A stretch of DNA of 64,000 bases from an uncultured Candidatus Saccharibacteria bacterium (GTDB lineage: Bacteria; Patescibacteriota; Saccharimonadia; Saccharimonadales; JAGQNJ01), in contig CAZNZL010000001.1 of the NCBI GenBank assembly GCA_964577565.1, positions 270,566 through 334,565 of the forward strand, in the 5' to 3' direction. How positions within the stretch are numbered: the stretch's first letter is position 1; each line of letters starts with the position of its first letter. A model generated the notes under the pieces. The model did not search any database. It worked only from the letters and a program-made list of their open reading frames with translations, and was not told where the DNA came from. Positions 44,625-47,495 of this stretch are shown here, in pieces. A program made the position numbers and the translations under genes.

Positions 44625-47495
44625 TCACACAACAAAATTAATTAGCTTATTGGGAACGTAAATCACCTTTTTTGGTTGATTGTTTAGGTAACTTGCAACT
44701 TTGTCATCGGCCTTTGCGGCTTGCTCAATATCTTCTTGCGAACTGTCTATAGGCAGTTGAATGTTGGCACGAACTTTACCATTAACTTGCACAACTATGG
44801 TCACCTTTTGGCTCATTAAGTATGCGTCATCGTGCACCGGCCAGTCGCTTGTATGAACAGACGATGTATTGCCTAAATCATGCCATAATTCTTCAGCAAT
44901 ATGAGGGGCAAATGGCGCTAGTAACTTTAGCAAGGTTTCAGTCGTTGCGTGCCATTCTTTGGCAGTAAAGCCATCTTTAGCTTTGATTTTATACAGCGTA
45001 TTTACGTATTCCATAAGGCTAGCAATCGCTGTGTTGAAGCCCAGCACTTCAAGATCTTTGCTCACTTTAGCGATTGTTTGATGCGTTATAGTCATGAGCT
45101 CATGATTGTTGGTACTGTTTTTTGCGTCAGCCGCAATATACTCTTGCACAAGCGTCCACACCCGCTGCAAGAACCGAAACGTTCCGCCTATACCTTCAAC
45201 ACTCCAGTTTGCGGACTGGTTCCAGGGGCCAATAAAGAGCTCCATAAGCCGTATTGAGTCGGCTCCGTACCCTTGGTCAATTAAACCATCGGGCTCTATA
45301 GTGTTACCCTTGCTTTTACTCATTTTGAGACCATCTGGCGCCAAAATCATACCCTGGTTACGCAGCGTTGTGAATGGTTCAGTGAAGTTTACTAACCCTT
45401 CATCATACATAACCTTAGTCCAAAAACGAGCATATAACAGGTGCATCACCGCGTGTTCAGCCCCGCCAATGTAGTCGTCCACAGGCAACCAAAAGGCTGC
45501 CTTTTCTTTACTGAACGCCTGTGTGTCATTATGCGGGTCTGCAAAGCGCAAGAAATACCAGCTGCTACAGGCAAAGCCGTCCATGGTGTCGGTCTCGCGT
45601 TCGGCCGGTCCACTGCACGTTGGACACGTTGTGTTTACAAACTCTTGTACATTCGCAAGCGGACTGCGGCCATCACCACTCGGCTCAAATTTGGAAAGCT
45701 CTGGTAACTCAACAGGCAGCTGATCCTCGGGCACCGGTACAATGCCACATTTCTGACAGTGAATGATCGGAATTGGTGCACCCCAATAACGTTGACGACT
45801 AATAAGCCAGTCACGCATCTTGTAATTTACCTTCTCTTCGCCCACGCTTTTTTTAGATAAATCTGCCACGATTTTGTCACGCGCCTCGCTCGAACTCATA
45901 CCATTATACGTTCCAGAATTTGTCATCACCCCTTCGCCATGAAAACACTTACCGTTAATGAATTTATCAAATGCGTATCGATGTAGCGGCTCAATTATTT
46001 CTTTATCACCAACTGCTTGAGATACCCATTCAACTGTAAAATTACCCTTTTCTGAGTCGTCAAGCTTCTGTTCTTGTTGAGCTTCAGACTTTAAGCGAAG
46101 TTTCACAAATCTTGCTTTAATCTCGTGAGTTTCGTCTTTTGAAAACGCATAATATTTGTAATGAAATGTTTCGTCACCGACCTCTTCTACCTCAAGATCT
46201 GTATAGCCAGTTTCTTCGATTACCTCACGCAATGCTGTCATCTCAGGAGACTCACTAGCTTCAGCAGTTCCACCAACAAACAAGCGACCGCCTTTTTTGC
46301 CCCAGTTTATTGTGAGGAGTTCGTTTCTGTCATTGGTAACGAGTGCAACTATTTTGTCTTTTTTTAGATCGGCTGTCTTGTCCTGTGCATCCTCACGAAC
46401 AGCCTCCGGATCGACAACATGTACAACCGGTAGGTCAAATTTTTTGGCAAATTCATGGTCACGCTCATCATGAGCAGGGACGGCCATAATAGCACCAGTG
46501 CCGTAGCCCATCAGTACGTAGTCGGCAATCCAGATAGGAATTTTTTTATCGGTAGCAGGATTAATGGCATATGCGCCAGTAAAAACACCAGTTTTTTCAC
46601 GCTCCGTTTCTTGGCGTTCTATGTCACTTTTGCTTTGTGCCTGTTTGATGTAGTCTTTGATGGCTTGCTTTTGATTACTTGTTGTAATTTTGTCTACTAG
46701 CGGATGTTCGGGGGCCAACACCATAAAGGTCGCGCCAAATAACGTATCTGGTCGAGTCGTAAACACTTTGAGCACATCGCCACTACCATCAATCTTAAAG
46801 TCAATTTCAGCACCCTTACTTTTACCGATCCAGTTGCGCTGCATCGACTTAATTGCTTCAGACCAATCAAGATTATCAAGATCAGCTAATAAACGCTCGG
46901 CATAGTCGGTTATCTTAAAGAACCATTGTTTCAGGGCTTTCTTTTCAACATCGTTACCGCAGCGCCAGCATTTGCCGGCTTCTACTTGCTCGTTTGCCAG
47001 CACCGTTTTATCAACCGGACACCACCACTGTAAGCTTTCTTGCTGATACGCTAAACCTTTTTTATATAGCAACAAAAAGAACCATTGCGTCCATTTGTAA
47101 TAATCTGGGTCAGTACTGTCGATCTCGCGCGACCAATCATAACCAAACCCCATTTGCATAAGCTGCTGTTTAAAACGCGCGGTGTTTTCATCAATCGCCT
47201 TGCGGGGCGTTATGCCGGTTTTCAAGGCATAATTCTCTGCTGGCAGACCAAATGCATCCCAACCCATTGGATGTAACACGTTATATCCGCGCATGCGGTT
47301 AAAGCGGGCGGTGGCATCACCAATGGTATAGTTGCGCACGTGACCAACATGCATGGCTGCGCCGCTGGGGTACGGGAAATATTCTAAGATGTATCTTTTT
47401 GGCTTATCTGAATCTTCACGTGCATGGTGAATACCGGCCGCTTCCCATTTTTCTTGCCATTTGGGTTCAATTTCTTTTGGATTATATCGTTTCAT
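44625..47495 (-). CDS. leuS: leucine--tRNA ligase with an inserted Nudix-like domain
   Basis: HVGH (HIGH), TTRPDT and [15 protein letters not shown] (CP1 editing domain), KMSKS. About aa 362-520 is extra relative to my memory of E. coli LeuRS and contains a perfect Nudix box. Confidence 0.95.
   Translation of the reverse strand: [956 protein letters not shown]

Follow-up and report, generated by a model that had tools for sequence, protein, structure and literature searches.

A Nudix domain nested in the CP1 editing domain of a Saccharibacteria leucyl-tRNA synthetase

The gene for leucyl-tRNA synthetase (LeuRS) in a 64,000-nucleotide stretch of DNA from an uncultured Candidatus Saccharibacteria bacterium (contig CAZNZL010000001.1, positions 270,566 to 334,565; the window in what follows) encodes a complete Nudix domain nested in a loop of the CP1 editing domain, which is itself set into the catalytic fold. 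By profile searches, the insert belongs to a distinct and apparently undescribed Nudix family associated with tRNA synthetases in Saccharibacteria-like bacteria. The interpretation that we prefer, tentatively and with less than even confidence, is that the domain would be a tethered enzyme of the branch that holds the diadenosine polyphosphate (ApnA) hydrolases and RppH, clearing by-products that resemble diadenosine tetraphosphate (Ap4A).

The insert and its LeuRS host

A phmmer alignment to the LeuRS of Thermus thermophilus (1h3n/2byt) pairs aa 1-362 of the window protein with Thermus residues 1-363, and aa 517-721 with 376-581, so that aa 363-516 (154 residues) stand in for 12 residues of Thermus CP1. 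Together with alignment to insert-free relatives, this delimits an in-frame segment of about 150 aa at 45948..46409 (reverse strand, as for every leuS feature given here). At the equivalent position, all 18 of the solved LeuRS sequences that were matched are insert-free. The initial annotation, made from the sequence alone, had placed a Nudix domain at 45936-46412; its aa 362-520 map exactly to those coordinates, and the present boundaries trim the segment by a few residues. It had also described the segment as coming after the conserved editing-domain motif, which it does, but the segment lies inside CP1, not merely after it.

The Pfam NUDIX model PF00293, the search proposed initially as a check on the identity of the domain, gives a significant match to aa 382-492 (46020..46352; E 1.1e-11, 45.4 bits), and the excised insert scores higher still (50.6 bits, E 2.6e-13; the gathering score is 21.1). 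The Nudix box, the metal-binding catalytic motif, occupies aa 409-431 (46203..46271) and is matched by regular expression as an exact GX5EX7REUXEEXGU, as first reported. The annotated whole Nudix fold likewise holds up in structure prediction. In the AlphaFold2 model of the full-length protein, the predicted local distance difference test (pLDDT) score is 86-96 in every 10-residue block over aa 361-520, and the insert modelled in isolation reaches pLDDT 94.7, with the order of strands and helices expected for a Nudix domain. A Foldseek search of the PDB with the isolated model lists 50 matches, all of them Nudix-family structures by their descriptions, at probability 1.00 and template modelling (TM) scores of 0.5-0.7. 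We are confident, from these models, in assigning the insert a predicted Nudix alpha/beta/alpha sandwich fold.

Other origins for such a segment were considered. An intein is rejected, as the two junctions (the second reads ...KCFH|GEGVM...) lack splicing residues (Cys, Ser or Thr first, and a terminal His-Asn with Cys, Ser or Thr after it) and the segment has a Nudix fold. A mobile-element origin is unsupported, the direct and inverted repeats at the boundaries being short and at chance level only. A search of PADLOC-DB found no significant match to anti-phage defence systems, the sole match being PDC-S07 (E 1e-3 to 2e-4), which spans some 45 residues in the neighbourhood of the box.

The host gene, leuS (44625..47495), is an otherwise orthodox bacterial LeuRS, with the motifs of its synthetic and editing sites intact. 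Its 956-aa product scores 1094.9 bits against TIGR00396 (bacterial leuS), well above the cutoff of 548.4 for a LeuRS equivalog. Pfam recognizes the class I catalytic domain (tRNA-synt_1), the LeuRS editing domain (tRNA-synt_1_2, PF13603) and Anticodon_1, and the model of the entire protein has a mean pLDDT of 87.2. The full set of class I signatures and CP1 editing motifs that marks a bacterial LeuRS is present: HVGH, the HIGH-type signature of the synthetic site, at aa 49-52 (47340..47351), and KMSKS at aa 724-728 (45312..45326), along with the threonine-rich editing motif TTRPDT at aa 246-251 (46743..46760) and the GTG...AHD editing motif with its conserved Asp at aa 332-343 (46467..46502). 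Most residues of the intact TTRPDT are invariant or nearly invariant in an alignment of close LeuRS relatives. D343 is invariant in that alignment, and the motif that it closes ends 19 residues ahead of the insert. A separate peculiarity of this protein and its relatives is the absence of the leucine-specific domain, which in Thermus comprises about 55 residues (582-636) before KMSKS; pLDDT falls below 50 at aa 726-729, near the place of the missing domain (the aa 721-724 region).

A search with full-length LeuRS as the query supplied the 120 closest LeuRS proteins in a public collection, which, where named, come mostly from Candidatus Saccharimonadales or Saccharibacteria. (An insert-only query of a word-indexed protein collection returned just one 116-aa fragment; full-length searches and exhaustive searches of representatives were used instead.) The insert is carried by 93 of these 120, as judged by 207-223 residues between reference positions 335 and 545, where the window protein has 211. 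The remaining 27, proteins of about 810 aa, have 62-82 residues there (nearly all 62-65, and one with 82). Among the 93, G409, E424, E427 and E428 are present in every sequence, E415 in 89, R423 in 91, G430 in 92 and Y431 in 84. Conservation outside the box singles out W490 (93 of 93), which is part of EWVSQ at aa 489-493 (46017..46031), with E482 (88) and W398 (83). It also singles out the YKYYAF segment at aa 446-451 (46143..46160), where position 448 is Y or F in 85 homologues and position 449 in 67. The median identity to the window copy is nevertheless only about 30% for the insert, against about 65% for the whole protein. Near-invariant catalytic residues in an insert of such low identity indicate strong purifying selection on the Nudix box, both in the window protein and in the relatives nearest to it. 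Outside the box the domain diverges quickly, a pattern of selection on catalysis in a fast-evolving scaffold. Alignment might have exposed a common LeuRS insertion with a degenerate motif, as the initial annotation allowed; what it reveals is a segment absent from the 810-aa relatives and from the solved LeuRS structures, with a motif nearly invariant wherever it occurs in the 93.

Insertion sites, architectures and gene neighbourhoods of the family

A family profile built from 21 diverse inserts was searched against 1.84 billion representative proteins, yielding 111 hits with E below 1e-30 and 1440 with E below 1e-10, and the best 150 representatives were used for a census of host, site and copy number. 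LeuRS flanks are present in 116 of them; 26 are of stand-alone size (143-206 aa), and the remaining 8 are larger proteins of other kinds. Within LeuRS at least three sites are used, with one to three copies per protein. Site B, the site used in the window, follows the AHD helix and accounts for 107 domains in the census; 16 lie at site A, the first CP1 hairpin just ahead of the threonine-rich motif, and 5 at site C, the zinc-knuckle region of the catalytic domain. Two or three Nudix copies are found in ten of the 150 proteins. A Trp at the distance of W490 from the box is present in 124 of 129 family domains, and aromatic residues at positions +17/+18 in most. The canonical box is missing from 35 of 164 family domains (about 21%), with changes of E to Q and of R to A, M, Q or C. 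The changes are correlated, in that the GX5E glutamate and the RE arginine go missing from the same domains, and in multi-copy LeuRS the degenerate domains often sit beside a canonical copy.

Some members of the wider set have unusual architectures. One of the closest relatives of the window protein (P0003, L096:3001-7359, GCA_039809165.1) is a LeuRS of 1452 aa, with a second, diverged copy of CP1 (AHD changed to AHN) that holds its own nested Nudix domain, followed by a third Nudix domain whose box is degenerate (E to Q, R to C). An assembly artefact was considered for this protein and rejected: protein identity between the copies is only 28%, and the absence of repeats in the DNA shows that the duplication is old. 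Two further LeuRS proteins, P0072 (984 aa) and P0093 (1144 aa), have a domain of about 175 aa of the alpha/beta-hydrolase or serine-hydrolase type (PF00561, PF06821, PF12697) at site A, after the residue equivalent to 239 of the window protein. P0093 carries this insert and a Nudix insert both. The LeuRS of this lineage thus accepts more than one type of hydrolase domain. Proteins of 279-388 aa (P0251, P0262, P0268) join the family Nudix domain to a partial, degenerate LeuRS editing domain, and in two of about 250 aa (P0210/P0263) it stands behind an N-terminal region that weakly matches HGTP_anticodon (20.8 bits in the 251-aa protein, where the gathering score is 21). These five may be stand-alone versions directed at tRNA. 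The only host seen that is not an aminoacyl-tRNA synthetase is P0253 (1318 aa), an M17 leucyl aminopeptidase into which two GNAT domains and two family Nudix domains are inserted. Three metagenome-assembled genomes (MAGs) labelled Bipolaricaulota, Thermotogaceae and Anaerolineales (L018, L019, L020) encode LeuRS about 115 aa longer at the same CP1 position; the extra stretch gives no score with the Nudix family profile, and may represent a different insert at the same CP1 hotspot.

Gene neighbourhoods were sampled for nine stand-alone members, and six of the nine lie directly upstream of an aminoacyl-tRNA synthetase gene: leuS in three cases, and in the others valS, thrS and a C-terminal fragment of the methionyl-tRNA synthetase (MetRS) gene. 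If synthetase genes are assumed to make up 2.5-3% of all genes, six of nine by chance has a probability of about 1e-7. Two of the leuS genes (downstream of P0139 and P0195) themselves bear an insert. The third, which begins 3 nt after P0186, is insert-free; these two genes are a fusion/fission ("Rosetta stone") pair to the insert-bearing LeuRS. P0154 lies between tsaD and valS, P0182 is upstream of thrS, and P0194 precedes an open reading frame (ORF) whose match to MetRS is confined to the C-terminal half. The other three members of the nine (P0164, P0236, P0252) have no synthetase neighbour. On a short contig (L091:40-1218), such an ORF, matching only positions 303-506 of the MetRS profile, follows a stand-alone member; it may represent a split MetRS, or else a MetRS gene with a Nudix insert that gene calling has broken up. 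The initial annotation had stressed the placement of the domain next to the CP1 editing site. Relatives in which the domain is found at other sites, or is encoded by its own gene, weaken that emphasis. Since the domain would work from several points of insertion and also as a separately encoded operon partner, being tethered to the synthetase or expressed with it appears to count for more than a precise position at the editing pocket.

The history of the insert is unlike that of its host. Insert-free LeuRS proteins are interspersed among insert-bearing ones, and their nearest neighbours by core identity are often insert-bearing; a crude neighbour-joining tree, drawn from the limited LeuRS set of a genome scan, also scatters the insert-bearing sequences. 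(That scan, which used the insert alignment and flanking LeuRS motifs, samples LeuRS across bacteria, does not include the window's own genome and is not a census. Labels on some insert-bearing MAG contigs, namely Muribaculaceae, Bacillales, Gammaproteobacteria and Clostridia, are unconfirmed, and no occurrence outside Patescibacteria is claimed.) Core identity and insert identity are uncorrelated over 4278 pairs (Spearman 0.009). At 65-75% core identity the inserts range from 14% to 78% identical, and they become similar only above about 80% core identity; some pairs of inserts are more alike than the LeuRS proteins that host them. The G+C content at third codon positions (GC3) in the window is 0.327 for the insert (45936-46412, 159 codons) and 0.457 for the rest of leuS, a difference of about 3 standard errors for that number of codons, which could reflect a foreign origin or weaker codon selection. 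These patterns fit repeated gain, loss, duplication and replacement of the insert, and tandem duplication with differential loss would fit equally.

The window also encodes two other Nudix genes, first annotated as free-standing neighbours of leuS. One of them, at 41953-42444 (reverse strand), is indeed an intact gene of 163 aa, directly downstream of nusB (42447-43043, reverse strand). The other, at 43401-43837 (forward strand), is frameshifted into two ORFs, 43401..43532 and 43499..43837, within a run of six G residues (43511-43516). With one more G in that run, the two ORFs join to encode a 146-aa Nudix protein whose box is GHLEFLERADECLARELLEEMNI; the frameshift could mark a pseudogene, a sequencing error or phase variation. 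Against 180 bits for the insert, the insert-family profile gives 42.5 bits for the intact gene and 15.5 bits for the frameshifted one, scores that place both outside the insert's family. Derivation of the insert from a nearby Nudix gene is accordingly rejected; in BLASTP comparisons, too, similarity covers only about 40 residues around the box. The gene order at this locus is Mur ligase, D-Ala-D-Ala ligase, leuS, nusB, Nudix gene, RNase III, and it is the same in the related GCA_039809165.1. Many Saccharibacteria loci (e.g. L008, L027, L038, L061, L096) likewise have nusB, the Nudix gene and then RNase III close to leuS, whether or not the LeuRS has an insert.

Possible functions of the tethered domain

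A synthetase that reacts its aminoacyl-adenylate with ATP or ADP would release Ap4A or diadenosine triphosphate (Ap3A), and the likely job of the Nudix domain would be to destroy such adenine dinucleoside polyphosphates. The domain is predicted to be an active Mg2+/Mn2+-dependent hydrolase of the ApnA-hydrolase/RppH branch, held to the synthetase physically or stoichiometrically. Linkage to aminoacyl-tRNA synthetases fits the ApnA reading, because synthetases generate Ap4A and Ap3A from aminoacyl-adenylate. The best PDB profile match is the lupin Ap4A hydrolase 1f3y (E 2e-12), with unclassified MutT/Nudix proteins close behind at 5e-11, and the best NCBIfam match is YtkD/RppH. Characterized neighbours near the top of the Foldseek list include the Aquifex Ap4A hydrolase 3i7u, E. 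coli RppH (including 7sp3, with Ap4A), the Thermus Ap6A hydrolase Ndx1 and Chlamydia CT771; in that list 3i7u, Ndx1 and CT771 are interspersed with entries for RppH, MutT and NudI. Ap4A and other ApnA hydrolases of the Nudix type are said to share an aromatic residue (Tyr) 16-18 residues downstream of the box, a rule reportedly put forward by Dunn and co-workers in 1999, and Y447-Y449 of the window LeuRS fit the rule. The conserved aromatics at 17-18 residues past the box, with the invariant Trp about 42 residues further on, resemble the adenine-stacking pair of Ap4A hydrolases, which would make the aromatics of YKYYAF candidates for nucleobase stacking. Among the substrates suggested initially, the Ap4A type seems the more plausible. 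Aminoacyl-adenylates are not nucleoside-diphosphate-X compounds and, on chemical grounds, are unlikely to be Nudix substrates.

Several observations weigh against clearance of Ap4A-like compounds. The insert falls far short of every equivalog cutoff it was scored against: YtkD TIGR02705 (26.9 bits, cutoff 154.4), RppH (NF001937 and related; 16.3, cutoff 139) and the MutT 8-oxo-dGTPases NF008044 (18.8, cutoff 148) and TIGR00586 (16.8, cutoff 97.9). TM scores near the top of the Foldseek list are only 0.6-0.7 and the first match is an uncharacterized MutT/Nudix protein, which makes the substrate class a lean rather than a call. With about a fifth of the wider family degenerate in the box, catalysis is not maintained everywhere. 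The domains inside the M17 aminopeptidase, accompanied by GNAT, are not explained by an Ap4A model, and LeuRS and ValRS are poor producers of Ap4A compared with LysRS or PheRS.

The same similarities could point to an RppH-like pyrophosphohydrolase that acts on the ends of RNA or tRNA and exploits the synthetase's grip on tRNA, with a 5'-triphosphate, Np4A- or NAD-type caps, or a 3'-CCA end that toxins have pyrophosphorylated as possible targets. We regard this as unlikely, though still worth weighing. Among NCBIfam models the highest score goes to YtkD, the RppH family of B. subtilis, the Foldseek list is dominated by E. coli RppH structures, and relatives are fused to modules that handle tRNA (the partial editing domain of P0251/P0262/P0268, and the weak HGTP_anticodon region of the 251-aa protein). 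Sites A and B, moreover, are each no more than 20 residues away from the two motifs of the editing pocket, which hold the 3' end of the tRNA, but site C is far from CP1 in sequence, the HGTP_anticodon match is borderline, and the scores are far under the RppH equivalog cutoffs. Bacterial tRNAs normally have a 5'-monophosphate after RNase P, and if a Nudix enzyme cut a 3'-diphosphate, the 3'-phosphate left behind would still block the end. A somewhat less probable alternative is that the domain is a generic house-cleaning Nudix enzyme, for oxidized or non-canonical nucleotides or ADP-sugars, that hitch-hikes in an essential, constitutive gene of a tiny genome and has no chemical link to aminoacylation. 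Such an enzyme would be consistent with the weak similarity to MutT, NudI, NudB and ADP-ribose pyrophosphatases, with toleration of the domain at several surface loops and in another housekeeping enzyme (the M17 aminopeptidase), and with other catalytic inserts in related LeuRS, such as the alpha/beta hydrolase. It does not sit well with the ties of stand-alone members to synthetase genes (six of nine), with LeuRS as the host in 116 of the best 150 representatives, or with the two ordinary Nudix genes of the window being of clearly different families.

Two further explanations we consider improbable. The module might be mainly non-catalytic, as a nucleotide sensor or allosteric regulator of LeuRS (responding to Ap4A or (p)ppGpp) or as a structural or interaction surface. 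The 35 domains without a canonical box, their correlated losses and their frequent position beside a canonical copy speak for such a role, but the window box is exact, and the invariance of E424, E427 and E428 in the 93 close homologues is the signature of retained catalysis. Equally slim is the chance of a conflict or detoxification module, in which Nudix, alpha/beta-hydrolase and GNAT domains are grafted on synthetases and an aminopeptidase as protection from nucleotide-type toxins or antibiotics that hit the synthetases of epibiotic bacteria. Patchy presence among close relatives, the decoupling of core and insert identity with some inserts closer than their hosts, and the lower GC3 of the insert are all consistent with conflict, as are the alternative catalytic inserts at site A, the M17 peptidase with two GNAT and two Nudix domains, and the existence of an NCBIfam model for IleRS with a GNAT domain (NF040702). 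However, tandem duplication with differential loss, or a saturated core signal, would also explain the decoupling, the PADLOC matches are marginal only, and we know of no Nudix enzyme that cleaves mimics of aminoacyl-adenylate. A broader proposal draws on parts of these. The family would be a modular synthetase accessory in Saccharibacteria-like bacteria that adds a third hydrolytic function beside synthesis and editing, acting on tRNA ends or on nucleotide toxins or alarmones that target synthetases. An ongoing conflict, rather than housekeeping, would then lie behind the speed with which the family is gained, lost, duplicated and swapped. We think this rather doubtful, about as much so as the generic house-cleaning enzyme. 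The tethered ApnA-type hydrolase remains the reading we would put forward, tentatively, ahead of these.

Comparison with known systems and significance

Literature searches found no description of the LeuRS-Nudix architecture or of the Nudix family, in agreement with the initial remark that this fusion was not known to have been described; Pfam annotations for such LeuRS-Nudix proteins are already in databases. A 2026 survey of domain insertions presents the LeuRS editing domain exclusively as an inserted module, never as a host (PMC13114784). Aminoacyl-tRNA synthetases are among the most conserved enzymes, and the extra modules known from bacterial ones mostly serve tRNA binding or editing; the LeuRS of the window carries, within its editing domain, a catalytic domain of an unrelated kind whose motif is intact. 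The domain is conserved over a large lineage of uncultivated bacteria and tied, through fusions and operons, to at least four synthetases, which points to an unrecognized coupling of aminoacylation with nucleotide-pyrophosphate metabolism, through Ap4A-type alarmones or RNA-end chemistry. The evolutionary record is unusual for an essential gene, with nested insertion, several sites, copy-number change and domain swapping. Since the LeuRS editing domain is a drug target (for benzoxaboroles), lineage-specific decorations near its pocket could also matter for drug action.

The domain shares with the Nudix ApnA hydrolases and RppH/NudH (3i7u, 1f3y, 4s2y/7sp3, Ndx1) the fold, the catalytic box and the aromatic residue about 17 residues past the box. 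Those enzymes are free-standing, whereas the window domain sits within LeuRS, features an N-terminal extension of its own together with an invariant Trp, and falls far short of every curated equivalog cutoff. A link between a synthetase and a Nudix enzyme has a eukaryotic counterpart in the LysRS-Ap4A-NUDT2/HINT1 axis, where a synthetase that makes Ap4A is linked with a Nudix enzyme that destroys it, as separate proteins of a signalling pathway. The likeness lies in the synthetase-Nudix link itself; nothing in the window data shows signalling. Compared with canonical LeuRS (Thermus 1h3n/2byt, E. coli 4aq7), the window protein is collinear over its whole length and has the same HIGH, KMSKS, threonine-rich and GTG...AHD motifs, but it has about 154 extra residues in place of 12 of CP1 and lacks the leucine-specific domain. 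A parallel in kind is the IleRS with GNAT described by the NCBIfam exception model NF040702 (ileS_w_GNAT), which likewise combines a class Ia synthetase with an unrelated catalytic domain, GNAT on IleRS there and Nudix on LeuRS here. Given that model, catalytic add-ons to class Ia synthetases are not unprecedented.

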